From Candidatus Didemnitutus sp. (GTDB taxonomy: Bacteria; Bacteroidota; Ignavibacteria; Kapaibacteriales; Kapaibacteriaceae), in contig DATGWS010000268.1 in NCBI GenBank assembly GCA_035299365.1, forward strand, positions 1 through 53,392: DNA of 53,392 nt. Direction: 5' to 3'. Shown here piece by piece: positions 2,566 through 50,924 of this stretch; within the stretch, counting starts at the first letter, position 1; each line of letters opens with the position of its first letter. The position numbers and the translations under genes are program-made. The notes below the pieces were generated by a model. That model was not told the origin of the DNA and searched no databases. It worked only from the letters and a program-made list of their open reading frames with translations.

Positions 2566-4380
2566 ATGTCCGTCCGCTCTATCATTGTTGGTGTGGTCTT
2601 TACACTCACATCATTCTCTGCTCTCTTTGCACAAGAAGAGCTTGTTCAACCCGAGGAGGTCCTTGCCGTTGATGGTGTTGTCAGCGACACACTTACGTTG
2701 GCGATATCGCCGATCACGGTTGCGGGGAAAACGCTTACATCCCGACTCTATAACGGTTCATCACCTGGACCTACCTACAGGCTGCATCGCGGTGAACTTC
2801 TTCGGGTTCTGCTGAAGAACCAATTGCCCCCTAACCCAGATCAGGATAGTGCAGACCAAGGGAACTTCCCACAGCGACTGAATACCACCAATCTTCATAC
2901 CCATGGTTTGAATGTGTCTCCGTCAGACAGCTCTGACAATGTGCTGTTGGAGATCCTTCCTGGAACGGACTTCCAGTTTCACATCCAACTTCCAACAGAT
3001 CATGCAGCGGGTACGTATTGGTATCATCCGCATCACCATACGTCAACCTACGGTCAGGTTGTGAGTGGCTTAGCTGGCACGATCATCGTTGAGGATGTGA
3101 ATGACCCACTGGTAACGGACCCGGCACTTCTGGCAATCGAAGACCGCATCTTTGTGTTCTCGCTCTTCCAGTACGATACGGCAACGAACACACTTCCATA
3201 TCCGGTACGAAATACGAGTGCTGCAACAGCATTCAGTCCATATGGCACGGTCACAGACTCCCCTGTTCTCGTCAATGGAATGCTCAACCCAAAAGTCACC
3301 TTCCGTCCGGGCGAGATCCAACGCTGGCGGATGATCAATGCCACGTACGAGATGAACATCGACGTTCGTTTCTTGAAGATCATCGAAGGAGACACAACGC
3401 AGGTAGTCCATCAGGCCATTGCAAATGACGGACTCTATTTCAACACGATGAAACCTTCGTCGCACGAGATCATACCAACAGGTGCACGCTTGGACTTCCT
3501 CGTTACGGCCCCGTCCGAACCGGGAGAATACGTGATGCAGGTGCTCACGCGTGATCGGCAACTTGTTGCACAACCCGATCCGCAGTTCATCACCATCGTT
3601 GTAGCCGGAGACCCTATTGTGCCGGCGATGTCCATGCCCACGAGACTACCGATCCCTATTGCGCAAGGTGATATTCGTGACGATGAGATAACAGGTAGCC
3701 GTACCATCGTTTTCAACGTTGGAGACTTTGCAGACCTTGCCACGGATCCTACAGTTGTCTCGCGCTCATTCACAATTGACAACGCGCCGTTCGATCATAA
3801 CGTTGTGAATATCACGTTGCAATCCGGTGCCGTAGAAGAATGGACTATCATCAACAACAGCACAGACTTCCATCCCTTCCATATCCACGTGAATGAGTTT
3901 CAGGCAATTGAGAAGAATGGTGTAAAGTTTGATCCGCCCATCTGGTGGGATGTGATGCTGCTCGATACGATGAGCACCTATAAGATTCGTCATCGTTTTG
4001 GTCCAGCAAGTGGCAAAACCGTTATGCATTGTCACTACCTTCCTCACGAGGACTGGGGCATGATGAATCTCATAGACATTCTTCCGAAGTCTACGAGTAT
4101 CGATGAAGCACCATGGACAACACCCGTAGCCTTCCCCAATCCCGTAGTTGGCAGAATTGATCGGGTGAACGTGAACATCCCTGAGTTCCTCACGGGTAAA
4201 ACGCTGAACATTTCATTGCACAACGTAGAAGGAAACCTTGTTTCATCGCAGACTATTGATCCTTCGTTGAAGCGTCAAGCATCTATCGACGTGTCTGCAC
4301 TTCCTGCCGGGACGTATTACCTCCTTGTGAATGACGGGGGCGTATACCGCGAGTCCGACATGATCGTGCTTGTTCGTTGA
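2566..4380 (+). CDS. Multicopper oxidase (laccase-like) with T9SS C-terminal sorting domain
   Basis: Copper motifs are LHTHG, WYHPHHH, HPFHIHVN and HCHYLPHEDWGMM. The signal peptide starts at the internal ATG 2566 (MSVRSIIVGVVFTLTSFSALFAQ). The C-terminal about 85 aa (AFPNPVVGRI...LPAGTYYLLV...VLVR) look like a T9SS CTD. The ORF-track start at 2365 overlaps the tyrosinase gene and was rejected. Confidence 0.85.
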   Translation: MSVRSIIVGVVFTLTSFSALFAQEELVQPEEVLAVDGVVSDTLTLAISPITVAGKTLTSRLYNGSSPGPTYRLHRGELLRVLLKNQLPPNPDQDSADQGNFPQRLNTTNLHTHGLNVSPSDSSDNVLLEILPGTDFQFHIQLPTDHAAGTYWYHPHHHTSTYGQVVSGLAGTIIVEDVNDPLVTDPALLAIEDRIFVFSLFQYDTATNTLPYPVRNTSAATAFSPYGTVTDSPVLVNGMLNPKVTFRPGEIQRWRMINATYEMNIDVRFLKIIEGDTTQVVHQAIANDGLYFNTMKPSSHEIIPTGARLDFLVTAPSEPGEYVMQVLTRDRQLVAQPDPQFITIVVAGDPIVPAMSMPTRLPIPIAQGDIRDDEITGSRTIVFNVGDFADLATDPTVVSRSFTIDNAPFDHNVVNITLQSGAVEEWTIINNSTDFHPFHIHVNEFQAIEKNGVKFDPPIWWDVMLLDTMSTYKIRHRFGPASGKTVMHCHYLPHEDWGMMNLIDILPKSTSIDEAPWTTPVAFPNPVVGRIDRVNVNIPEFLTGKTLNISLHNVEGNLVSSQTIDPSLKRQASIDVSALPAGTYYLLVNDGGVYRESDMIVLVR

Positions 4381-4903: not shown

Positions 4904-4963
4904 ATTGTCCATAGGATTGTCCATAGGATTGTCCATTGAATTGTCCGTATTAATGTCCAGAAT
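4904..4963. repeat. Five tandem 12-bp units (ATTGTCCATAGG-type iterons)
   Basis: The units are ATTGTCCATAGG x2, ATTGTCCATTGA, ATTGTCCGTATT and AATGTCCAGAAT, head to tail. A sixth copy, ATTGTCCATATG, lies at 5007..5018 and overlaps the fic start codon. Confidence 0.8.
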
Positions 4964-5015: not shown

Positions 5016-6218
5016 ATGAGCGTCCAGATCGTATACCCAACGCCCTACATTCCAGAAGATCATTCGATAGGCATTCTTCAGGAGAGGGCCTCCGACGTTA
5101 TCGTTAAGTCGCATGGCATAACAGGCATTGTTCCATCCGGATTGCAGGAGCCCCTTACCGTCCTTCTGCGAGCAATGAATTCGTATTACACGAATCGGAT
5201 AGAGGGACAAACCACCACACCCAATGAGATCGAAAGGGCAATGAAGAGTGACTATTCTGGCGACAGGCGAATAGCTCAGCTGCAACGTTTGGCCATTGCT
5301 CACATGGAGGTGGAACGAATGCTTGAAGAGGAGAGTGCCGGGCTTGCGATTTCAGATCTATACAACCCAAGCGTTGTCCAGAATATCCATCGAGCACTCT
5401 ATACTAGGCTGGAACCAGACGACAGAGTAACGACGGACGGCGCCCAGATTGAACCCGGGGCATTCAGAGATGTCACGGTTTACGTCGGCATTCATGTATC
5501 ACCAGAACCTCAAGAGATCAGCGACCAGCTCCGTCGGTGGTCTGAGATGTATGGTCAACAGCGTGGTTTGGAGCGGTCATTGATCGCTGCTGTTTGTTCG
5601 CACCACAGATTGGCTTGGATCCATCCATTTCGTGATGGAAACGGCCGCGTTGCACGTCTTCATATGCATTCGGTTCTTCACTCGCTCGGTCTTACAAATG
5701 GTTTGTGGACGCCGGTTCGAGGTTTTGCTCGCGACGTTCATCAATATTATGCAAGACTAGCTGGCGCTGATCAACCTCGATGGAATGATCTCGACGGGCG
5801 TGGCAATCTGTCTCAGAAGGAACTCGTTCTCTGGGGGGAGTATGTTCTTGATACGTGTCTTGATCAGATATCATTCATCGAGCGTTTGCTACAGCTACGC
5901 TCTCTTCGTGACAATCTTGGACTCCTACTTCGGTCACTTGAAGCACGTCCATGGCAGATGGGTTCTGAACGATCCGTTGTTAGGATCGATGCACTCGAGC
6001 CATTGCTTTACTCCGCATACACAGGCGAGGTTGATCGAGCTCGTTTCATAAGCATGATCGGTCTTCCGCAAAGGACCTCCCGTAGAGTGTTGGCGTCGCT
6101 AATAGACTACGGTCTTCTAACATCAACAACACCAAAAGGTCCGGTACGTTTCGCTCTTCCGTTCTCGGCCCTCAGCATGCTTTTCCCTCGTCTTTGGCCA
6201 GAAGCCGGCGGTTTGTGA
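5016..6218 (+). CDS. Fic family protein (AMPylase-type) with intramolecular inhibitory motif
   Basis: The Fic active-site motif is HPFRDGNGRVARL. An N-terminal TNRIEG matches the (S/T)xxxE(G/N) inhibitory helix. The C-terminal about 80 aa look like a winged helix. Confidence 0.85.
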   Translation: MSVQIVYPTPYIPEDHSIGILQERASDVIVKSHGITGIVPSGLQEPLTVLLRAMNSYYTNRIEGQTTTPNEIERAMKSDYSGDRRIAQLQRLAIAHMEVERMLEEESAGLAISDLYNPSVVQNIHRALYTRLEPDDRVTTDGAQIEPGAFRDVTVYVGIHVSPEPQEISDQLRRWSEMYGQQRGLERSLIAAVCSHHRLAWIHPFRDGNGRVARLHMHSVLHSLGLTNGLWTPVRGFARDVHQYYARLAGADQPRWNDLDGRGNLSQKELVLWGEYVLDTCLDQISFIERLLQLRSLRDNLGLLLRSLEARPWQMGSERSVVRIDALEPLLYSAYTGEVDRARFISMIGLPQRTSRRVLASLIDYGLLTSTTPKGPVRFALPFSALSMLFPRLWPEAGGL

Positions 6219-6222
6219 TTGA

Positions 6223-7734
6223 TCACATCGTTCCACTGTTCTGCGTCGCAGCAACGCCTGAAACGCTGAGTTTCCTCAGGAGGGAGCGTTTCTTTGAGTG
6301 GTGCTCTGCCATGCGATGAAGGATGTCGCTGAGAAACTGGACGGTGTCAACGATGTACGGACCTTTGTTCAGCATCACACATTCTGCTCGTACAGACATC
6401 GCGGCATCACTGACCTCTGCGCGAGAAGGAATGCCTTTTTGCGCCATACCTTCAAGGACCTGAGTAGCCCATATCACCGGTACGTGGGCGGCTTCACAAA
6501 GCCAAAGGATCTCTTCTTGTACTTCTGCGAGACGTTCGAAACCGATCTCAACGGCAAGATCTCCGCGTGCAACCATTATCCCGAATGGTGGGTGACGAAG
6601 TCCTTCAAAGAGGATCTGTGGCAGATGTTCAAATCCGTCCTGGGTTTCGATCTTAGCCACTACTCCTCGATCCGTAAGACCAAGTCTCTCCATTTCGTTG
6701 AAGAGCGAAGCAATATCACGTGCTGATCGTACGAAGCTCATGCCGATGATGTCGGCAAACTGGCCGAGCTGCTCGAGATGTTTCACATCGTCGTTCGTAA
6801 GCGCATCGATCTGTAACGGTGTATCGGGAAGATTGATCCCTTTTTCGGCACGTAGCCATGCTCCGCCGTGTTTTGTACGAACGATCTCCACTTCAAAGCC
6901 ACCTTCGTTGACGTCGATCACACGTGAGGAGACCTTGCCATCATTGATCCACAACGGATCACCGATTCGAATAGCATCGAATACCTCTTCCGGTTCACAC
7001 GAGAGCAGGATCCGTTCTTCTGAGGGAGATCGCAGATCACAGGCGTAACCATGGAGCCCCTTTGCAAATCGAATGATGTCACCTTTACGAACCCTTACAC
7101 GCTCCATCGGTCCGAGACGGAACTTTGGTCCACCGAGATCGATGTAGACCTTGCACTTCTTCCCGGTCTGTTGTTCAGCTGCACGAAGATTGCTGATCAT
7201 CGCCTTCCACGCACCAACGTTGTCGTGTGCAGTATTGATCCGCATGATGTCCATGCCCGACCGTACAAGTTCTAGCAAGTGCGACGGGTCCGTTGCTGCC
7301 TCGCTCGACATGGTAACCATAATACGCGCTGACCTCTCACCGTTCGGTGTTCCCATCAACGTGCGAGCGTGATCTGAGAGGTACAGCGGACCGGTTCTTG
7401 CATTCACCGTAGTCGTGACCAGTTCCTCTGAAGAGTATTCATCTCCTGCCATGCATTTCAACGCTGCAATGACGTTTGCAAGCGTGCTAAGAACACATGG
7501 TTCACTTCTCCCTAAGGCGCTCAGACCTAGGTAATGCAGTTCATCCTGCAACTCCCGAACATCTGACCGACGGAGAGCCAAATAGTGTGCAAGGTTGCAG
7601 GCCGAATCACGATAGTTCGGATGCACTCTCTCTATTGAGCCGGCAAACTCGTTCTCGGTCTCCAGGGCACTCGTACGTAACTCGGAGAGAGCATCGATCA
7701 GATCAGCAAGGTTGGATCTGGGTTCAAAGGTCAT
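6223..7734 (-). CDS. Pyruvate kinase family protein (barrel domain, N-terminal extension)
   Basis: Motifs are MDIMRINTAHD, GGPKFRLG, MSFV and MVARGDLAVEIG. The ATG at 7734 is preferred over the TTG at 7740. Confidence 0.75.
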   Translation of the reverse strand: MTFEPRSNLADLIDALSELRTSALETENEFAGSIERVHPNYRDSACNLAHYLALRRSDVRELQDELHYLGLSALGRSEPCVLSTLANVIAALKCMAGDEYSSEELVTTTVNARTGPLYLSDHARTLMGTPNGERSARIMVTMSSEAATDPSHLLELVRSGMDIMRINTAHDNVGAWKAMISNLRAAEQQTGKKCKVYIDLGGPKFRLGPMERVRVRKGDIIRFAKGLHGYACDLRSPSEERILLSCEPEEVFDAIRIGDPLWINDGKVSSRVIDVNEGGFEVEIVRTKHGGAWLRAEKGINLPDTPLQIDALTNDDVKHLEQLGQFADIIGMSFVRSARDIASLFNEMERLGLTDRGVVAKIETQDGFEHLPQILFEGLRHPPFGIMVARGDLAVEIGFERLAEVQEEILWLCEAAHVPVIWATQVLEGMAQKGIPSRAEVSDAAMSVRAECVMLNKGPYIVDTVQFLSDILHRMAEHHSKKRSLLRKLSVSGVAATQNSGTM

Positions 7735-8499: not shown

Positions 8500-9129
8500 T
8501 CACAACGCTATGTCGAGCGTCACGATCCAATACTGATAGTCTGAGCCTGGACCAAGCCAGTGTACTGCTGCATCAACGGAGTAGACATTCACACCAAGCA
8601 GCGGACCATATGATAGATCCAACGCTTCATGAAGAACGCGGGTACGCTGTAGAACGGCGCCGACTCTAAGATTATCCGTTATAGATCCAGTGAGCTCTGT
8701 CCAACTATAGAAGAACGTCCCATCCGACGATCGCACATCAACAACGAATTCGTTCTCGATATAGACGTTCAATATCCCATACGTTGCTTCGGCCTCCACG
8801 CCAACACCCCATCCCATTGTGTTGCCGACCACCACACCTAGCATTGGAGTGACGTAGCCACTCACAGCCCCTTCCCAACTGAAGACCGGTCCAGCCCACA
8901 AAGAAGCGGTTTTGAAGTCCTCATAGTTGTAGCGCAACTCCAAATGCCATCGGTCATTCTCCATCATCGCCACCGGGATCATAAAGAACCCATCATCTGG
9001 CGTGAAGTAGGCATACGCCATGGCATGAGGTTCCCACGGTGCAGACTTGACCGTGTCCAAGGAACCTTCGGCGAGAAGGGGCGAGGAGTAAAGAACGACC
9101 GCAATGAAGGTGGAGAACAACGTCTTCAT
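8500..9129 (-). CDS. Hypothetical secreted / outer-membrane beta-barrel-like protein
   Basis: The signal peptide starts at the internal ATG 9129 (MKTLFSTFIAVVLYSSPLLAEG). The sequence has an alternating aromatic/glycine beta-strand pattern. Confidence 0.55.
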   Translation of the reverse strand: MKTLFSTFIAVVLYSSPLLAEGSLDTVKSAPWEPHAMAYAYFTPDDGFFMIPVAMMENDRWHLELRYNYEDFKTASLWAGPVFSWEGAVSGYVTPMLGVVVGNTMGWGVGVEAEATYGILNVYIENEFVVDVRSSDGTFFYSWTELTGSITDNLRVGAVLQRTRVLHEALDLSYGPLLGVNVYSVDAAVHWLGPGSDYQYWIVTLDIAL

Positions 9130-23246: not shown

Positions 23247-23307
23247 GCATTATGGCAACTCTGATGCCATTTTGCAATGCATTATGGCAACTCTGATGCC
23301 ATTTTGC
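23247..23307. repeat. Tandem duplication (period 32 bp) of a 29-bp hairpin-plus-T-tract unit
   Basis: GCATTATGGCAACTCTGATGCCATTTTGC occurs twice (23247..23275 and 23279..23307). Each copy contains ATGGCA-ACTCTGA-TGCCAT followed by TTTTG. The site lies between convergent gene ends. Confidence 0.8.
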
Positions 23308-24778: not shown

Positions 24779-25207
24779 ATGAATGCAGAACTCACTCTCG
24801 CAGTGGAAACTCTCAAAGCAGCCAAGAATATTGCTGTTGTAGGTCTTTCTCGAAATCCCGGCAAGTCTGCTCACGATATACCCCTGTTCATGGCTAGTGC
24901 CGGGTACAACATCATCGGTGTTAACCCCCACGCCACACCTGCAGTAGCCACCGTTCCCGTGGTGGACACTCTACTGGATGTCCCCTTTACAATCGATATC
25001 GTTAATGTTTTCCGTCCTTCTGAAGACACAGATGCCATTATTGATCAAGCCATCACACGTAAATCACAACGTGGAGACGTGTCCTGCATCTGGCTTCAAC
25101 AAGGGATCACAAGCAAACACGGCGCTGTCAAATGTGCTGCAGCAGGCATCACGTATCTCGAGGATACGTGTATCTATGTCATTCAGCAATATGTGCATGC
25201 CCTCTAG
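24779..25207 (+). CDS. CoA-binding domain protein (YccU-like)
   Basis: It has a Rossmann-type IAVVGLSRNPGKSAHDI motif and the typical length of about 140 aa. Confidence 0.75.
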   Translation: MNAELTLAVETLKAAKNIAVVGLSRNPGKSAHDIPLFMASAGYNIIGVNPHATPAVATVPVVDTLLDVPFTIDIVNVFRPSEDTDAIIDQAITRKSQRGDVSCIWLQQGITSKHGAVKCAAAGITYLEDTCIYVIQQYVHAL

Positions 25208-25209
25208 GT

Positions 25210-25228
25210 CCCATGACATCGTCATGGG
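25210..25228. other. Hairpin CCCATGAC-ATC-GTCATGGG (module hairpin, copy 1)
   Basis: Perfect 8-bp stem with a 3-nt loop. It starts 2 nt after the CoA-binding gene stop and ends 9 nt before the heptamer array. Confidence 0.8.
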
Positions 25229-25237
25229 CCACCAACT

Positions 25238-25342
25238 CTATTCGCTATTCGCTGTTCGCTGTTCTCTGTTCTCTGTTCTCTGTTCGCTATTCGCTGTTCT
25301 CTGTTCGCTGTTCGCTGTTCTCTATTCGCTGTTCTCTATTCA
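25238..25342. repeat. Heptanucleotide tandem array, 15 x CTRTTCK
   Basis: A hand parse gives 15 phased units: CTATTCG x2, CTGTTCG, CTGTTCT x3, CTGTTCG, CTATTCG, CTGTTCT, CTGTTCG x2, CTGTTCT, CTATTCG, CTGTTCT, CTATTCA. Apart from the final CTATTCA, only positions 3 and 7 vary. Confidence 0.95.
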
Positions 25343-25356
25343 TGACTTTCGTCATG
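25341..25356. other. Hairpin CATGAC-TTTC-GTCATG closing the array
   Basis: 6-bp stem with the same CATGAC/GTCATG arms as the hairpin at 25210. Confidence 0.7.
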
Positions 25357-25408
25357 GTATGCCCCCTCCCAACTCCCTAGATTCCCTTTGTCATCTAGGA
25401 GACCCCTC

Positions 25409-26176
25409 ATGAAACGCATTTTCACTACCGCTTTCGTATCACTTGCCGCGTCCGTATTGATCGGCTCATGTGGGCTGACAGATTCAGACCCCGCAGATCC
25501 CAATGATCCGGTAGGGGGCACTACAGAACTCGAGGACACAGAGCCCGGGGCACGGCACTCAGCCTATCCGGAATTGGGAGACTGGTTGCCGGATGAAATG
25601 ACGCCTCGAGATAGCATCATCATCAAGTCGAGGAATAACGGCGTAGTGGTGGTGGATTTTAATGTGACCTTTGACACAGCATTCACCCTCCGACTCGACA
25701 CGCTCCTGGGAACAACCATTCTACCCGTAGATGCCAAAAAGTCCCTGATCGATACCTACCTAGCTCAGTATGGGGCTACCCTGGATACCACCAACAAAGA
25801 CCGCATGATCATTCATGCAGAACCCAAGTTCCGCGTATCCTCAGAAGGCATCCAAGACTTTGTAGCATCCAAGGGCGATGAGTCCAAGCCTTTCACTATC
25901 ATCAAATACAACATGAACGTGGGAGACAGCTGGTCATTCACGCGCTCCGATGGCGTGAAAATCACTCGCAAGGTTGTGTATCACTCAACAGATGATGACT
26001 ACGAAGTGATCTTCTGGAGACTCAAGGTCTTCAAAACCGAACAAGTTCAAGAGAACGACCCGCTGCTCTCAAAGATCATCTGGGTTACCAACCATAAATA
26101 TGGCCTCGTTGGCGTTCACATCTTCGATAAAGCTGGCAAGGAGATCCCGATAACGATCGCTCCCCCATCGCTTTAA
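25409..26176 (+). CDS. Hypothetical lipoprotein
   Basis: The ATG at 25409 gives MKRIFTTAFVSLAASVLIGSCG with a lipobox. AGGAG lies 8 nt upstream. Confidence 0.6.
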   Translation: MKRIFTTAFVSLAASVLIGSCGLTDSDPADPNDPVGGTTELEDTEPGARHSAYPELGDWLPDEMTPRDSIIIKSRNNGVVVVDFNVTFDTAFTLRLDTLLGTTILPVDAKKSLIDTYLAQYGATLDTTNKDRMIIHAEPKFRVSSEGIQDFVASKGDESKPFTIIKYNMNVGDSWSFTRSDGVKITRKVVYHSTDDDYEVIFWRLKVFKTEQVQENDPLLSKIIWVTNHKYGLVGVHIFDKAGKEIPITIAPPSL

Positions 26177-26180
26177 ATGT

Positions 26181-26199
26181 CCCACAACTTCGTTGTGGG
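26181..26199. other. Hairpin CCCACAAC-TTC-GTTGTGGG (module hairpin, copy 2)
   Basis: Perfect 8-bp stem with a 3-nt loop, 4 nt after the lipoprotein stop. It has the same architecture (CCCAYRAC-N3-GTYRTGGG) as the hairpin at 25210. Confidence 0.8.
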
Positions 26200-26201
26200 C
26201 T

Positions 26202-26257
26202 CTGTTCTCTGTTCGCTATTCGCTATTCGCTATTCGCTATTCGCTGTTCGCTGTTCA
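26202..26257. repeat. Heptanucleotide tandem array, 8 x CTRTTCK
   Basis: The units are CTGTTCT, CTGTTCG, CTATTCG x4, CTGTTCG and CTGTTCA. The last unit contains the stop codon (26255..26257) of the convergent minus-strand gene. Confidence 0.95.
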
Positions 26258-27202
26258 CCAGGGTGTCCACGACACGGCCAACGCCGGCGCTACATTTGGA
26301 CCGGGCAGGAGTGTAAGCCCAAAGTCGAACGTCATTGCAGTGTTGCACTGGCGGAGTCCAAGGAACAACGCGCTTTGAGATGGCCGTGTGAGATCTGCGT
26401 TCCACAACTCACCTAAGAAATGCAGGTCATGCATCTCAGGGAATCGCACGTCCATCATAAAGGCAACGCCGATGGTACCGTTGGCGTAGGGGAACGTAAA
26501 GGGATCAAAAAGAGTACCGCCACTCACAACGTAGGACTCCTTGCCGGCAACCTTGGCATGAATCATTGTGCTGATGCGCGTGCGTTTACCAGTGAATGTG
26601 GCAACGCCGTAGATGTGACCCATGAAGTTCACATCGTTGATCCACGAGCCGTTTACGCCAAAGGCATAGATCTGCTTGCCCCCTTCCACCAATCCATTCT
26701 TGCCCTCATACACAGTGCCCTTGATGTTCACGGTGCTGAATTGGTTCTGCCATCCAATGCCGGGCACAACTGTTCGCCCGCCGGTGATGCTCATGAAGTT
26801 TGCAATTCCTACGCCAAGAGTTGGCATCACACCTTCTACGAGCGCGATATAGTGGTCGCTCTTGATAGCCTCGGCTGTAGGCAGGATCAAACCTCTGTTG
26901 CGTGCACGATACGATTCTTCCAACAAGCCGATCCATGAGATTTCTGCTGCATAGATCTTCGCTCTACCAAACGGAGTCTTGATGCGGATATAAGCGCCAA
27001 CGGAATCAGATGCTGTTTCGCTTACTGGACCCGAAACCACATCGCCGTTCACAAGACGTACGTAGTAGTCTAACTCGGTATCAAACTCATACTGCTCAAG
27101 TGCGTCGTCTGACATGCCCTGCTGTGCCGTGAGTGGTGGTGCACCTACAAGTGTGCATACCAGCACGATACATCCGAGTATGAGTTTGTGCAGGGGGCTC
27201 AT
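26255..27202 (-). CDS. Hypothetical secreted protein
   Basis: The ATG at 27202 gives the signal peptide MSPLHKLILGCIVLVCTLVGAPPLTAQQ. The start overlaps the rlmN stop in an ATGA arrangement. Confidence 0.55.
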   Translation of the reverse strand: MSPLHKLILGCIVLVCTLVGAPPLTAQQGMSDDALEQYEFDTELDYYVRLVNGDVVSGPVSETASDSVGAYIRIKTPFGRAKIYAAEISWIGLLEESYRARNRGLILPTAEAIKSDHYIALVEGVMPTLGVGIANFMSITGGRTVVPGIGWQNQFSTVNIKGTVYEGKNGLVEGGKQIYAFGVNGSWINDVNFMGHIYGVATFTGKRTRISTMIHAKVAGKESYVVSGGTLFDPFTFPYANGTIGVAFMMDVRFPEMHDLHFLGELWNADLTRPSQSALFLGLRQCNTAMTFDFGLTLLPGPNVAPALAVSWTPW

Positions 27203-28308
27203 TGGCCCGCCCCTTCTTGAGAGAATGCGAGCTGACCGCATGCTGCGTCGATGTCGAGTCCGGCAGACGAACGTACATTCACTTGGACATCTTCTGCACG
27301 TAGACTATCGGCAAACCATTGAAATTGCTCCGGTGTAGACGGCTTGAGCGACATATCAAACCCTTCCGGGAGTGCGAAGTCGATCTCATGGAAGGGGATC
27401 AAATTCACACGTGTTGGCATCCGTCTTGCCAGCTTACCCAACCGCTTCACATCGGCAAGGCTGTCATTGATCCCATTGAAGAGAATGTACTCATAGGTCA
27501 CAGACTTGCGTGTCTTCCGATAGTAGTACTCAAGTGCCTCGATCAATTCCGGCAGTTGATGTTTCTTTGCAATAGGCATGAGTTCTGCGCGCACATCCTG
27601 CACCGTTGCGTGCAAGGACACGGCGAGCTTGATGATCTGACCTTCGTCGGCCATACGCACGATCCCAGGCACAACACCTGCCGTAGAGATGGTTACGCGA
27701 CGAGGCGCTACCATCTTTGTTCGCTGATCCGTAAAGATCTGTGTTGCACGCATCACTTCATCATAGTTATTCATCGGCTCACCCATCCCCATGAACACAA
27801 TGTTCGTGATGGGCTTGGTAGAGAATTTTTGCGCTTGGAGAAATTGATCTACGATCTCACCCGACGTGAGATTACGCGCCAATTTTAGCGACGCTGTGGC
27901 ACAGAACACACATCCAAGATTACATCCTACTTGAGTAGAGACACAGAGCGTAAGTCTTCGAGGGTGCTCACCATCCGGTACCATCTCACTTGGGATAAGT
28001 ACACTTTCAACTGCTCGCCCATCCCAAAGCTCAAAGAGAAACTTCTTTGTTCCATCAGCAGACTCTTGCACGGTCTGCAGCTTCACACTTTGCGTACGAT
28101 ACTCAGATCCAAGTTTCTCACGCAACGCATGCGGCAATAGCGCCATCTCCTGCACAGTGTCCAGCCGCTGGATGTAGATACCATCGTAGACCTGCTGCGC
28201 ACGATACTTGCGCTCGCCCGCATCCACGAACATCTTCTCAAGCTCACCTAGGGGATGCCCCTTGAGCTCAATCGGTCCGTCCACTATGTCCCGCTTTGCT
28301 TTTGCCAT
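27199..28308 (-). CDS. rlmN: 23S rRNA/tRNA adenine-C2 methyltransferase, radical SAM
   Basis: It has the CxxxCxxC cluster GCNLGCVFCATA, GMGEP and the C-terminal DIDAACGQL. Confidence 0.9.
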   Translation of the reverse strand: MAKAKRDIVDGPIELKGHPLGELEKMFVDAGERKYRAQQVYDGIYIQRLDTVQEMALLPHALREKLGSEYRTQSVKLQTVQESADGTKKFLFELWDGRAVESVLIPSEMVPDGEHPRRLTLCVSTQVGCNLGCVFCATASLKLARNLTSGEIVDQFLQAQKFSTKPITNIVFMGMGEPMNNYDEVMRATQIFTDQRTKMVAPRRVTISTAGVVPGIVRMADEGQIIKLAVSLHATVQDVRAELMPIAKKHQLPELIEALEYYYRKTRKSVTYEYILFNGINDSLADVKRLGKLARRMPTRVNLIPFHEIDFALPEGFDMSLKPSTPEQFQWFADSLRAEDVQVNVRSSAGLDIDAACGQLAFSQEGAGQ

Positions 28309-28333
28309 TGTTCTTCCTCTTCACAATTTCACT

Positions 28334-29467
28334 CTAGCACATTAGCACACTAGCACATTGCACGGCCACATTCGACGAAATCGCTACACCCATTCCATTG
28401 CATCCAAAGGCTACCACACAGTGCGGTGAGACGTTCCCAACATACGGTTGTTTTGTTGCCGTAAACGCCATCGTACCCGCCCAGCGGTGCTCGATCTCCA
28501 GTTCCGGATGGTTTGGCAGGATCACCGTGCGAAGCATGTTCTCCAACACCGCCTGAATATGCTCCGTTGTCTGGTGCGACGTAGTGCGTTCCCCTTCAAA
28601 GTCCAGGTTCCGCCCGCCCCCTAACAACACCCTGTTTCCAACCGATCGGAAGTAGTAATAGCCCTCATCGGCATGAAAGGATCCCTTGAGTTTTAGGTTG
28701 GTAAGGGGCTTGGTGACGATTACTTGACCTCTTCCGGGGAGGATCTCAGGTAGAGTTGCAGCGGGAACGAGACTCGGAATCATTGCGTTGGTGGCAACTA
28801 CTGTTTGTCGGGCAGTAATCACAATATCCTGATGAGCAGTGCGAACATCAAGTTCTACAGTCGTATCAGTATCACGTATGGACACAACCTCTGCGCCGGT
28901 TCGAATGTGCACACCGGCACGAGTAGCCAAGTCCCACAAGGCACTGATCAGTTTGCCGGAATGCAGCGTTCCCTCAAAGGGAGTGAACATCAACGTAGAG
29001 ACTGCCGGGGTTAGACCATACGCTGCAATGAGGTCATTACGTTGTGTGAACGCAGCACAACCAAAAATTGGAGCAAGCAGATCATTCACTTCTTCTAGAC
29101 GAGAGAGCGACGGATGATCTTCGAGGAAGATCTCCGAGCCACCATCCTCAGTATACCCAACATCATAACCAGAGCACCGTTCTCGTAGGAGTGTAAGTCC
29201 ATCAAGACGTTGTTGCACGAGGTTGCGTGCGGCATCGGTGCCCATGAGGTCGATGTCCGAGGCGATCTCGCTCAACGAACCTACACAGGCAAAGCCTGCA
29301 TTGCGCGTTGAAGCTCCTGTAGGCAGCAGATTGCGCTCTAAAAGCAGAACGCGCCACTCGGGGTGGCGCGTTGCACATTCAATTGCTGTGTTGACTCCGA
29401 TGATACCGCCGCCGATGATAACTACGTCATACGTCAGCCACGATTCATGTTCCCAAAAACTTCTCAT
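28334..29467 (-). CDS. FAD-dependent oxidoreductase (DAO family)
   Basis: N-terminal dinucleotide fold YDVVIIGGGIIGVNTA, with length and pattern typical of the DAO family. Confidence 0.8.
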   Translation of the reverse strand: MRSFWEHESWLTYDVVIIGGGIIGVNTAIECATRHPEWRVLLLERNLLPTGASTRNAGFACVGSLSEIASDIDLMGTDAARNLVQQRLDGLTLLRERCSGYDVGYTEDGGSEIFLEDHPSLSRLEEVNDLLAPIFGCAAFTQRNDLIAAYGLTPAVSTLMFTPFEGTLHSGKLISALWDLATRAGVHIRTGAEVVSIRDTDTTVELDVRTAHQDIVITARQTVVATNAMIPSLVPAATLPEILPGRGQVIVTKPLTNLKLKGSFHADEGYYYFRSVGNRVLLGGGRNLDFEGERTTSHQTTEHIQAVLENMLRTVILPNHPELEIEHRWAGTMAFTATKQPYVGNVSPHCVVAFGCNGMGVAISSNVAVQCASVLMC

Positions 29468-36368: not shown

Positions 36369-36431
36369 AGTTACTAGTTACTAGTTACGAGTTACGAGTT
36401 ACTGGTTACGAGTTACGAGTTACCAGTTACT
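36369..36431. repeat. Heptanucleotide tandem array, 9 x AGTTACK (second family)
   Basis: The units are AGTTACT x2, AGTTACG x2, AGTTACT, GGTTACG, AGTTACG, AGTTACC and AGTTACT. The last unit contains the ftsI stop codon (TAA at 36429..36427, minus strand). Confidence 0.95.
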
Positions 36432-49832: not shown

Positions 49833-50834
49833 ATGAAGTACTCCATCATTGTGGCCGTCTTTAACAGGCCGGACGAACTCGACGAGCTCCTTGAGAGCCT
49901 TACTTTTCAGTCGTTCACGGACTTTGAGATCATCATCGTCGAGGACGGCTCTACGGTAAGCTCAGAAGCCGTGTGTGCCCGATATGCCGGACGGCTTACC
50001 ATCCGTTACTTCTTCAAGGACAATAGTGGTCCTGGACCATCCCGGAATTATGGTTGTAGGCGTGCCTCGGGTGACTATTTCCTTTTCATCGATTCCGATT
50101 GCACCGTGCCCCCTCACTACCTCTCCTCAATAGATGCAGAGGTTTCTGAGAAGGGGCTTGACGCATTTGGGGGTCCGGACAGGGAACACGAGCGTTTCAC
50201 TCCCGTGCAAAAGGCCATAAGCTATGCGATGACATCGTTCCTTACCACCGGTGGTATCCGAGGTGGCAAGGTTCGTGTTGGCGGTGTCTTTCACCCACGC
50301 TCATTCAACATGGGTATCTCACGCGAAGTCTTCAATGCTACGGATGGCTTTGCCCGCATGCGTTTTGGGGAAGACGTGGAGTTCAGTATTCGCATGATGT
50401 CCATGCGATACAACGTGCAACTCATTCCCAACGCATGGGTCTACCACAAACGGCGTACAGATCTCAAGAAATTTTTCAAGCAGGTCCACAACAGCGGCAT
50501 AGCGCGTATCAATATCACGCTGCGTCACCCCGGCACGTTAAAGATTACCCACTTCTTCCCAACTGCTTTTACCCTCTACGTGGTACTCGCACTCGGCTAT
50601 ACCCTCTTTGCGCCATACGGCTGGATAACACTGATTCCATTAGGCGTCTACACACTTGCCCTCTTTATCGAGAGCTCACTTCGTTATCACTCTGCCATAT
50701 CCGGACTTCGATGCGTCCAAGCATCCTATGTGCAACTCATCGGCTATGGCACCGGCTTCATCCGCGGCATGATCTGGCGCGTTATCCTAAACAAGCCTGA
50801 GCAAGGGGCTTTTGAGAAAACGTTTTATGAATAG
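49833..50834 (+). CDS. Glycosyltransferase family 2 with C-terminal TM helices
   Basis: The sequence reads YSIIVAVFNRPDEL...IIIVEDGS...FIDSDC (DxD). The C-terminal third is hydrophobic. Confidence 0.8.
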   Translation: MKYSIIVAVFNRPDELDELLESLTFQSFTDFEIIIVEDGSTVSSEAVCARYAGRLTIRYFFKDNSGPGPSRNYGCRRASGDYFLFIDSDCTVPPHYLSSIDAEVSEKGLDAFGGPDREHERFTPVQKAISYAMTSFLTTGGIRGGKVRVGGVFHPRSFNMGISREVFNATDGFARMRFGEDVEFSIRMMSMRYNVQLIPNAWVYHKRRTDLKKFFKQVHNSGIARINITLRHPGTLKITHFFPTAFTLYVVLALGYTLFAPYGWITLIPLGVYTLALFIESSLRYHSAISGLRCVQASYVQLIGYGTGFIRGMIWRVILNKPEQGAFEKTFYE

Positions 50835-50924
50835 CGAATAGCGAATAGTGAATAGCGAATAGTGAATAGTGAATAGTGAATTATAAATTTGATTCTGAAT
50901 TCGCTATTCGCTATTCGCTGTTCT
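50828..50924. repeat. Inverted pair of heptamer arrays filling a convergent intergenic gap: 7-8 x YGAATAG, a 15-nt spacer, then 3 x CTRTTCK
   Basis: The left arm (50828..50883) is the reverse complement of the CTRTTCK family, and its first unit contains the GT2 stop TAG. The right arm (50899..50924) is GAATTCG-CTATTCG-CTATTCG-CTGTTCT, and its last unit contains the stop of the minus-strand gene. Confidence 0.9.

Follow-up and report, generated by a model that had tools for sequence, protein, structure and literature searches.

Repetitive extragenic palindromes (REPs), bacterial interspersed mosaic elements (BIMEs) and REPINs are known hairpin repeats (PMC3116915). Heptamer arrays are the commonest long simple sequence repeats (LSSRs) in many bacteria, with TAACTGA units in Beggiatoaceae, Cyanobacteria and Bacteroidetes (PMC4679880) and GGGAATC units in Xanthomonas, where inverted pairs also occur between convergent genes (PMC4692102). 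In Haemophilus influenzae, a phase-variable heptamer tract, (ATCTTTC)n, lies upstream of hmw1A and hmw2A (PMC12721329). Here we describe a 53-kb stretch of DNA from Candidatus Didemnitutus sp. (contig DATGWS010000268.1; ‘the window’, over the full length of which our statements on repeats, open reading frames (ORFs) and Pfam matches apply), in which a hairpin and a heptamer array are joined in one oriented module. Two such modules flank a lipoprotein gene that is itself an old resident of the site, and a small membrane-protein gene, ORF78, has apparently been lost from beside it, between two modules of an ancestor. Heptamer arrays as such are already known, from the short tandemly repeated repetitive (STRR) sequences, the TAACTGA arrays and hmw; what is new is the fixed coupling of two repeat types in one oriented module, the Kapabacteria-like host and the loss of a gene between modules.

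The sequence-only reading of this DNA had described a layout of stop codon, module, gene, stop codon and module, and its hairpin and array coordinates all prove exact on reading the sequence. Module 1 opens with the plus-strand hairpin CCCATGAC-ATC-GTCATGGG (25210-25228), which has a perfect 8-bp stem, a 3-nt loop and a folding energy of -12.3 kcal/mol as RNA, and which lies 2 nt after the TAG stop codon (25205-25207) of a plus-strand gene for a CoA-binding protein (24779-25207; Pfam CoA_binding_2, E=1.4e-27). There follow, on the same strand, the 9-nt linker CCACCAACT (25229-25237), aligned with CTACTGACTTC in a related genome, and array 1 (25238-25342), comprised of 15 head-to-tail CTRTTCK units (CTATTCG, CTGTTCG and CTGTTCT) in 105 nt. 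The linker starts with CCAC, or GTGG on the other strand, giving a REP-like foot, and the last unit of the array, CTATTCA, overlaps a palindrome at 25341-25356. Module 2, also on the plus strand, begins 4 nt after the TAA stop codon of the lipoprotein gene (26174-26176) with the hairpin CCCACAAC-TTC-GTTGTGGG (26181-26199; -11.5 kcal/mol). Array 2 (26202-26257) starts 2 nt after this hairpin and contains eight heptamers in 56 nt; its last unit, CTGTTCA, holds the TGA stop codon of a convergent gene on the minus strand (26255-27241; 328 aa, no Pfam match). The palindrome and the stop codon within array 2 had been overlooked in the sequence-only reading, as had two further sites of heptamer arrays, at 36369-36430 and 50828-50923.

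These structures are far beyond chance. The hairpin pattern has three matches at up to two mismatches in the window against 0.17 expected, the two exact ones being the module hairpins, and three matches were reached in none of 100 shuffles. The double-heptamer pattern has 28 matches against 0.24 expected. Six perfect hairpins of at least 8 bp with a loop of 3-6 nt are present in the 53 kb, three of them intergenic, and two of these three are the module hairpins. Nor are the modules an assembly artefact, because the same hairpins and arrays are carried by independent assemblies: seven Logan short-read contigs from five runs (L001-L003 and L252-L255), the NCBI metagenome-assembled genome (MAG) GCA_016708405.1 (L005) and L127, an independent JGI contig from the same species as L005. 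The lipoprotein gene of L005 has 83% nucleotide identity to that of the window, and L127 differs from L005 at one position in the 570 nt upstream of this gene. The species of the window is present in samples SRR22387823, SRR5823600, SRR23217750, SRR22388094 and SRR5823603. In L001, ~27 nt of non-array sequence separate the hairpin of module 2 from the regular array, compared with 2 nt in the window.

The same two-part module had been noted, in one orientation, on both sides of the gene; that the two are homologous copies of one repeat family rather than a coincidence is borne out by alignment and by a table of 15 copies from the lineage, in which at least eight distinct loci were seen. Copies of the CCCATGAC hairpin are found three times in L005, five times in L145 and also in L132, L191, L195 and L218. 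In 15 of the 15 copies, side and strand of the array relative to the hairpin are the same, and in ten the hairpin is followed by CTAC. On the reverse strand, this foot reads GTAG in those ten copies, GTGG in module 1 of the window, CTAG in three copies, and AGAG or TTAG at module 2 in the window and L001. The family hairpins are all perfect palindromes of 19 nt and all are intergenic. Hairpin 2 differs from the orthologous L005 hairpin, CCCATGAC-TTC-GTCATGGG, at two stem pairs, each changed on both sides (TG/CA to CA/TG), and pairing has therefore been kept. L005 has three consecutive modules: A, after the CoA-binding gene; B, between ORF78 and the lipoprotein gene; and C, after the lipoprotein gene. 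Modules A and B are identical over ~35 nt, in hairpin, loop, linker (CTACTGACTTC) and first partial unit (ATTC). L145 carries four tandem 43-nt copies of hairpin, CTAC and ATTCGCTATTC, which look like the unexpanded unit of the family.

The gaps that hold modules A and C are convergent and the one that holds module B is divergent; L145 is arranged likewise, and the L218 module is antisense to its genes. As judged from these copies, the orientation of the module follows the chromosome and not the genes, which argues for spread at the level of DNA over a purely transcript-level role. A start 2-4 nt after a stop codon, previously noted for both modules of the window, does hold for these two, but module B of L005, L218 and the second of the L145 modules show that the family as a whole does not keep to it. 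Units of module, gene and module besides that of the window were sought in the lineage and found around ORF78 in L005 and L256 and around a gene for an outer-membrane-protein-like (OMP-like) product in L145. The idea that modules mark the break of an ancestral ORF70-OMP block was dropped, the OMP-like gene of L145 not being orthologous to the OMP gene of L004. No terminal inverted repeats beyond the single palindrome, of the kind found in miniature inverted-repeat transposable elements, and no target-site duplication were seen at any of the 15 copies. Smaller elements are nested in some modules: the GCCCCTTCGGGGC hairpin in some copies, and an insert of 22-45 nt, GCCTCGA...GCTCGGCATGAC, in heptamer arrays of L005 (5836-5857 and 6908-6929), L145 (937-958 and 1650-1693) and L191.

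By the same comparisons, the hairpin–array composite is, among the matches listed, confined to a single small clade of Kapabacteria/Ignavibacteria-like bacteria (the window, L005/L127, L256 and other contigs). A coupling of hairpins to such arrays in other phyla was considered and rejected: among 103 listed CTRTTCK arrays from other phyla, a hairpin lies upstream of seven and downstream of 11, and none is CCCATGAC. A metagenome scan for the hairpin gave at least 120 matches, most of them seemingly unrelated 16-base palindromes, the informative ones being the Ga0154020 contigs and L218.

REPs are said, in work by Nunvar in 2010 and Ton-Hoang in 2012, to follow a GT[AG]G foot rule. Like REPs, BIMEs and REPINs, the module contains a short extragenic hairpin palindrome. 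Most copies, but not all, have a GT[AG]G-type foot on one strand, and the reverse strand of most copies reads GTAG and then the palindrome, which is the REP layout. The module resembles BIMEs in combining its hairpin mosaically with other small motifs, and REPs in forming tandem clusters (L145) and in lying mostly at the 3′ ends of genes. Unlike REPs, its stem is perfect and only 19 nt long, its copies stand singly or in direct tandem and not as inverted REPIN doublets, a heptamer microsatellite is joined to each copy, always on one side, and no REP-associated tyrosine transposase (RAYT) was found with the hairpins. Membership of a REP family is thus unproven, REPIN doublets being absent, no RAYT having turned up with the hairpins in the loci searched and only two copies being present in the 53 kb. 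A RAYT-like ORF with HLH and Y-x-x-x-NP motifs does lie beside the lipoprotein gene in L006 (811-1260, minus strand) and L257 (87-608, plus strand), at an orthologous intergenic site; its match to NCBIfam NF047646 (REP_Tyr_transpos; E=1.3e-14) scores 54 bits, under the cut-off of 80. In L006, it stands exactly where the window has module 2, and different repeats adjoin it (GGGTCGACGACCC palindromes). The L006 protein had no tblastn match in the window or the other lineage loci, no Y1 transposase was found in the window or the other lineage loci searched, and a search for homologues gave seven proteins, none traceable to the L005 genome. A link of this RAYT to the module hairpins thus found no support in either search.

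STRR sequences proper have CCCCAGT, TTGGTCA or CAACAGT units and occur in heterocystous cyanobacteria; here, the unit is CTRTTCK and the named homologues are Kapabacteria/Ignavibacteria MAGs. Elhai et al. in 2008 (cited in PMC3116915) reportedly found small dispersed repeats (SDRs) nested in the heptamer arrays of Nostoc punctiforme. The nested GCCTCGA...GCTCGGCATGAC elements of 22-45 nt, and the hairpin itself, are comparable in being lodged within arrays (L005, L145, L191 and L218), although the sequences are unrelated and the phylum is another. Like the STRR sequences and heptamer LSSRs (PMC4679880, PMC4692102), the arrays are intergenic, are found at several places in a genome and are built of 7-nt units placed head to tail, with mixtures of related units, with indels or unit changes between close strains, with relatives that have the same neighbourhood without repeats (L004), with inverted pairs between convergent genes and with breaks in short-read assemblies. 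They differ in unit and phylum, and in being physically coupled to a specific hairpin and linker. MacGregor’s arrays also lie mostly just upstream of start codons (PMC4679880), whereas the module arrays abut stop codons. The hmw tract, too, is an array of pyrimidine-rich heptamers that precedes the gene of a surface protein and is polymorphic between isolates (PMC12721329). The hmw arrays, however, lie in a mapped 5′ untranslated region (UTR), where they pair with a G-rich arm, whereas array 1 is upstream of the gene’s conserved palindrome, and, unlike hmw, the same arrays also occur between convergent genes.

Tandem Repeats Finder places period-7 arrays in the window at 25241-25334, 26212-26256, 36369-36430, 50828-50881 and 50899-50923, all between ORFs. 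The last two form an inverted pair of the same heptamer family as arrays 1 and 2 (50828-50923; GAATAGY x7.7, a 17-nt spacer and CTATTCG x3.6), which fills the gap between two convergent genes, with both stop codons inside its outermost units. With a folding energy of -45.8 kcal/mol, the pair resembles a cruciform or a bidirectional terminator; the CCCATGAC hairpin is absent from it. The array at 36369-36430, on the minus strand, is comprised of nine TAACTNG units, unrelated to CTRTTCK. It lies between co-directional genes, overlaps the TAA stop codon of the upstream PBP2/FtsI-like gene and ends 36 nt before the start of the next gene, and it is close to the TAACTGA arrays of Beggiatoaceae, Cyanobacteria and Bacteroidetes (PMC4679880). 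Unit order in the arrays differs between samples with identical proteins (L001 and L254 against the window), and the arrays would thus seem to behave as slippage-prone microsatellites, growing presumably by slippage. All of the Logan contigs L001-L003 and L252-L256 end inside heptamer arrays, and the lipoprotein gene therefore shows up as an isolated contig of ~0.93 kb.

Heptamers of this kind are widespread. (CTRTTCK)4 is present in many phyla in a genome scan, and the flanks of the matches hold ~80 other heptamer types. In viral contigs, the collection in which the comparison with permuted heptamers was made, CTRTTCK occurs in 46 stretches against 41 and nine for two composition-matched permutations; not being commoner than one of these two controls, it was rejected as a specially conserved heptamer across phyla. 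Several arrays elsewhere have a regular placement of their own. In the Rhizobiales, atpC is immediately preceded by CTATTCG arrays that form an inverted pair, a placement conserved in three species, L073 (R. palustris BisB18), L078 (M. loti) and L116 (the L073 gene matches Pfam ATP-synt_DE_N). In seven Saprospiraceae MAGs (L007, L011, L018, L039, L076, L111 and L120), (AGAACAG)n arrays, read on the coding strand, run right up to start codons, with a related inverted array upstream, ~25-35 nt past the far end of the main array; these arrays appear to form a 5′ leader.

The lipoprotein gene (25409-26176, plus strand) encodes 255 aa with the signal peptide MKRIFTTAFVSLAASVLIGSC and has no Pfam match. 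It has 58 homologues, those with an organism name being mostly Kapabacteria/Ignavibacteria MAGs, and the lipobox Cys21 is invariant in 56 homologues. Assignment of a function from the fold was tried: the predicted structure is a confident helix-plus-beta-sheet or barrel (AF2 pLDDT 91.4), but matches in the PDB are weak (YmcC-like 3fzx, E=7.6e-4, TM 0.38-0.44, and calycin-like folds, TM up to 0.44), and a profile search of PDB sequences gave no match. Comparison of the locus in relatives places the gene at the same site with or without modules. It is present and syntenic in L004, L005, L006, L256 and L257, and in L004, L005 and L006 it adjoins the same convergent gene (315 aa), the RlmN gene and the DAO gene, which in the window are at 26255-27241, 27199-28308 and 28334-29467. 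The L004 protein is 76% identical to that of the window; in L004, 2 nt separate the stop codons of the lipoprotein and convergent genes, and neither hairpin nor array was seen across 12.7 kb. More distant homologues (L246, L248, L249 and L251) have unrelated neighbourhoods, while L250 (53% protein identity) keeps RlmN nearby. In L005, the gene is split (168 + 87 aa, position 6466) by a GG/GGG homopolymer difference; this is probably a sequencing error rather than a pseudogene, because the gene of the same-species contig L127 is intact. L250 has tandem repeats on both sides of the gene (2900-3000 and 3799-3890), CWGTTCC x5 just upstream of the palindrome and a 13-nt repeat after the stop codon, which may be a parallel colonization of the same gaps.

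The palindrome that directly follows array 1, CATGAC-TTTC-GTCATG (25341-25356, plus strand), belongs to the gene and not to the module. Its core, TGAC-N4-GTCA, lies ~50-85 nt upstream of the lipoprotein ATG in seven of eight homologous loci (the window, L005, L004 at about 5914-5929, L246 at 4920-4935, L248 at 4921-4936, L249 and L250) and is absent from L251; L257 has a degenerate copy. It occurs nowhere else in ~10.8 kb of L246 and L248. A site kept in seven of eight loci is therefore an old cis element travelling with the gene rather than part of a mobile module, and it is most likely an operator or promoter-proximal site of the lipoprotein family. It shares its CATGAC core with the module hairpin, with a spacing of N4 as against N3. 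Closer to the gene, in the predicted fold, a small hairpin (25374-25402, plus strand), possibly an element of translational control, pairs CUCC with the GGAG ribosome-binding site; L005 and L256 share its stem, CTAGAT/ATCTAG, but have other loops. The gene, then, is by all these comparisons an old resident and not a mobile cassette.

The small gene next to it has had another history. ORF78 is a widespread small membrane protein of 78 aa with 63 homologues. Its gene is on the opposite strand, between modules A and B, in L005 and L127, and is module-bracketed also in L256. In L250 and L257, both without the hairpin module, it adjoins the lipoprotein gene divergently; L257 has no array beside it, and L250 has an unrelated five-unit CWGTTCC array just upstream of the palindrome. 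In L004, ORF78 lies near a GNAT gene. Nucleotide identities of the lipoprotein gene, taken over 525 nt of this one gene in five taxa, give the tree ((window, L005), L256), L257, L004. The window has the single module 1 and no ORF78, and the left flank of module 1 matches that of module A, its right flank that of module B. From the tree and the pattern of ORF78 and modules, the ancestor of the three module-bearing species would therefore have had the order module, ORF78, module, lipoprotein gene, and a single module with the left flank of A and the right flank of B is the footprint expected of a deletion between direct repeats. Apparently, ORF78 was deleted between two direct modules and module 1 is the scar; the mode of deletion we infer from the flanks. 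Repeat-mediated loss of a gene, with a fused module left behind, had been foreseen for this locus; the prediction suits the neighbour, ORF78, but not the lipoprotein gene for which it was made.

Geometry alone had suggested a true gene cassette, in which the lipoprotein gene would move, with module, gene and module as the unit of an exchange system that is site-specific, integron-like or forms circles. The layout of stop codon, repeat, gene, stop codon and repeat, with direct hairpin-forming repeats, is indeed that of integron cassettes with attC sites, units of this kind recur in the lineage, and the context of the gene differs in the distant homologues L246, L248, L249 and L251. The core sites of attC are RYYYAAC ... 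GTTRRRY in an imperfect palindrome of 57-141 nt; the arms of the module hairpins, CCATGAC/GTCATGG and CCACAAC/GTTGTGG, do not fit them, and the palindrome is perfect and 19 nt long. No integrase or recombinase is present in the 53 kb, nor within 6 kb in L004 or L005, and no transposase is present in the window. The gene is syntenic in the module-free L004, and it brings its own upstream palindrome in every context, which makes it a transcription unit in its own right, unlike a cassette without a promoter. Bracketed genes occur in either orientation, and ORF78 was ancestral at the site, not imported. A cassette is accordingly a very remote prospect, and the proposal that the lipoprotein gene is one has been abandoned. 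Nor is it at all probable, if rather less far-fetched, that ordinary features have merely coincided, unrelated intrinsic terminators and neutral microsatellites gathering in 3′ intergenic DNA with no family and no spread. Both hairpins of the window do lie 2-4 nt after stop codons, classical terminator hairpins follow the lipoprotein stop codon in the distant L248 and L251, and heptamer arrays are common and diverse in many phyla. Hairpin 2, with its tail CTCTGTTCTC, passes a terminator scan. Hairpin 1 does not pass it and has no T-tract after it, and the scan is no richer in the window than in shuffled sequence (two sites against 2.7). Coincidence also accounts poorly for a hairpin–array association and orientation kept in 15 of 15 copies with a shared linker, for the tandem 43-nt units of hairpin and seed in L145, and for an identical hairpin and linker in divergent promoter gaps, which are not terminator positions (L005 module B and L145 position 1624).

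An expression rheostat deserves more attention, doubtful as we consider it. Array 1 would be a contingency-type simple repeat tuning expression of the lipoprotein by its number of units, and the hairpins would be ordinary terminators. Array 1 directly precedes the gene’s conserved palindrome, with 66 nt between it and the ATG, the distant L250 has an independent array of heptamers (CWGTTCC x5) at the same spot, the arrays are polymorphic between samples, and the genes bracketed in the lineage encode envelope proteins (the lipoprotein, the small membrane protein ORF78 and the OMP-like protein of L145). The precedent is hmw, where the repeat is transcribed in the 5′ UTR and expression is inversely proportional to the number of heptamers (PMC12721329). 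But the same arrays also occupy gaps between convergent genes, in which a promoter would not be expected: array 2, the pair at 50828-50923, module A of L005 and the first module of L145. Array 1, for its part, would be upstream of the likely operator or promoter instead of between promoter and ATG. Moreover, the differences established between samples are those of unit order, the short-read contigs breaking inside the arrays, and L004, L246, L248, L249 and L257 have the same gene family without any array.

We therefore favour, as the probable though by no means certain explanation, a lineage-specific, oriented, mosaic intergenic repeat of REP/BIME-like character with a slippage-prone tail, set around a resident lipoprotein gene, with ORF78 lost between modules. 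The module consists of a perfect hairpin of REP-like form, CCCATGAC-N3-GTCATGGG, then a few linker bases, most often CTAC (the complementary strand reads GTAG), and a seed, ATTCGCTATTC, which replication slippage would have expanded into CTRTTCK arrays. The family would have entered the ancestor of a small Kapabacteria/Ignavibacteria-like clade. Its modules would have taken up places, always with one orientation relative to the chromosome, in three successive gaps that were at first very short: the one that follows the CoA-binding gene, the one that separates ORF78 from the lipoprotein gene and the one downstream of the latter. In the lineage of the window, recombination or slippage between the first two direct modules would then have removed ORF78 and left the single module 1. 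The copies would have spread as DNA, possibly by means of a Y1/RAYT-type enzyme. The hairpins may have acquired a side role as 3′-end or insulator structures where convergent genes are otherwise 2-4 nt apart; with energies of about -12 kcal/mol they may serve as 3′-end structures, plausibly so in the case of hairpin 2 with its T-rich tail.

Several observations weigh against this explanation. The window contains no transposase, RAYT or integrase, and the mobilizing enzyme is for that reason unproven. REP-type inverted doublets are absent, all copies being singlets or direct tandems; module 2 and the three CTAG copies lack the GTAG foot; and the 53 kb hold only two family hairpins. Hairpin 2 and its T-rich tail would fit a plain terminator as well. 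For the direction of the ORF78 event, the grounds are parsimony across five taxa and a one-gene tree of 525 nt. Finally, the CATGAC core common to the module hairpin and the gene’s own palindrome means that the hairpin may be of local origin and not a mobile element that came in from elsewhere. The last point can also be turned into a bolder proposal, which we offer tentatively and hold to be a good deal less probable than the explanation it extends. The unit of ~43 nt (hairpin, CTAC and seed ATTCGCTATTC) could be a new miniature element that copies itself in fixed chromosomal orientation into neighbouring gaps, perhaps with the help of an enzyme of the Y1/RAYT type that works on single-stranded DNA at replication forks. 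Its tail would inflate to arrays and the resulting direct repeats would time and again prune or reshuffle single envelope genes, and it was perhaps born from the operator palindrome of the lipoprotein gene.

The rest of the window is ordinary chromosome. Pfam scans identify genes for MetRS, GuaA (GMP synthase), PBP2/FtsI, pyruvate kinase, RlmN, asparaginase and glycosyltransferases, and in the scans of all 47 large ORFs no integrase, recombinase, transposase or RAYT was found. Genes are tightly packed, convergent pairs being typically 4 nt apart or overlapping, and such intergenic room as there is consists mostly of repeats. Between two convergent genes, a 32-nt direct repeat x1.9 (23247-23307) folds strongly (-29.7 kcal/mol) and is kept in the sister species (L005 3388-3448), where a 28-mer x5 array adjoins it (3455-3595). 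Between the genes for RlmN and DAO there is an octamer array, TAGCACAT (28326-28363), with more copies at the orthologous L005 site (9037-9096). An Rfam search of the module region gave nothing at the gathering thresholds nor at E up to 1.

Comparison at this locus shows concretely how short repeats between genes can alter the gene content of a compact genome from an uncultured bacterium: gaps of a few bases received three modules, and one small membrane-protein gene was then apparently lost between two of them. REP-like hairpins and heptamer microsatellites are usually treated apart, and a single oriented composite of both may help to explain how arrays are seeded. TGAC-N4-GTCA is a candidate operator for a lipoprotein family known mainly from Kapabacteria/Ignavibacteria MAGs. 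There is also a practical side, in that short-read assemblies break exactly at the modules, and lone single-gene contigs of ~0.9 kb can mimic excised cassettes.

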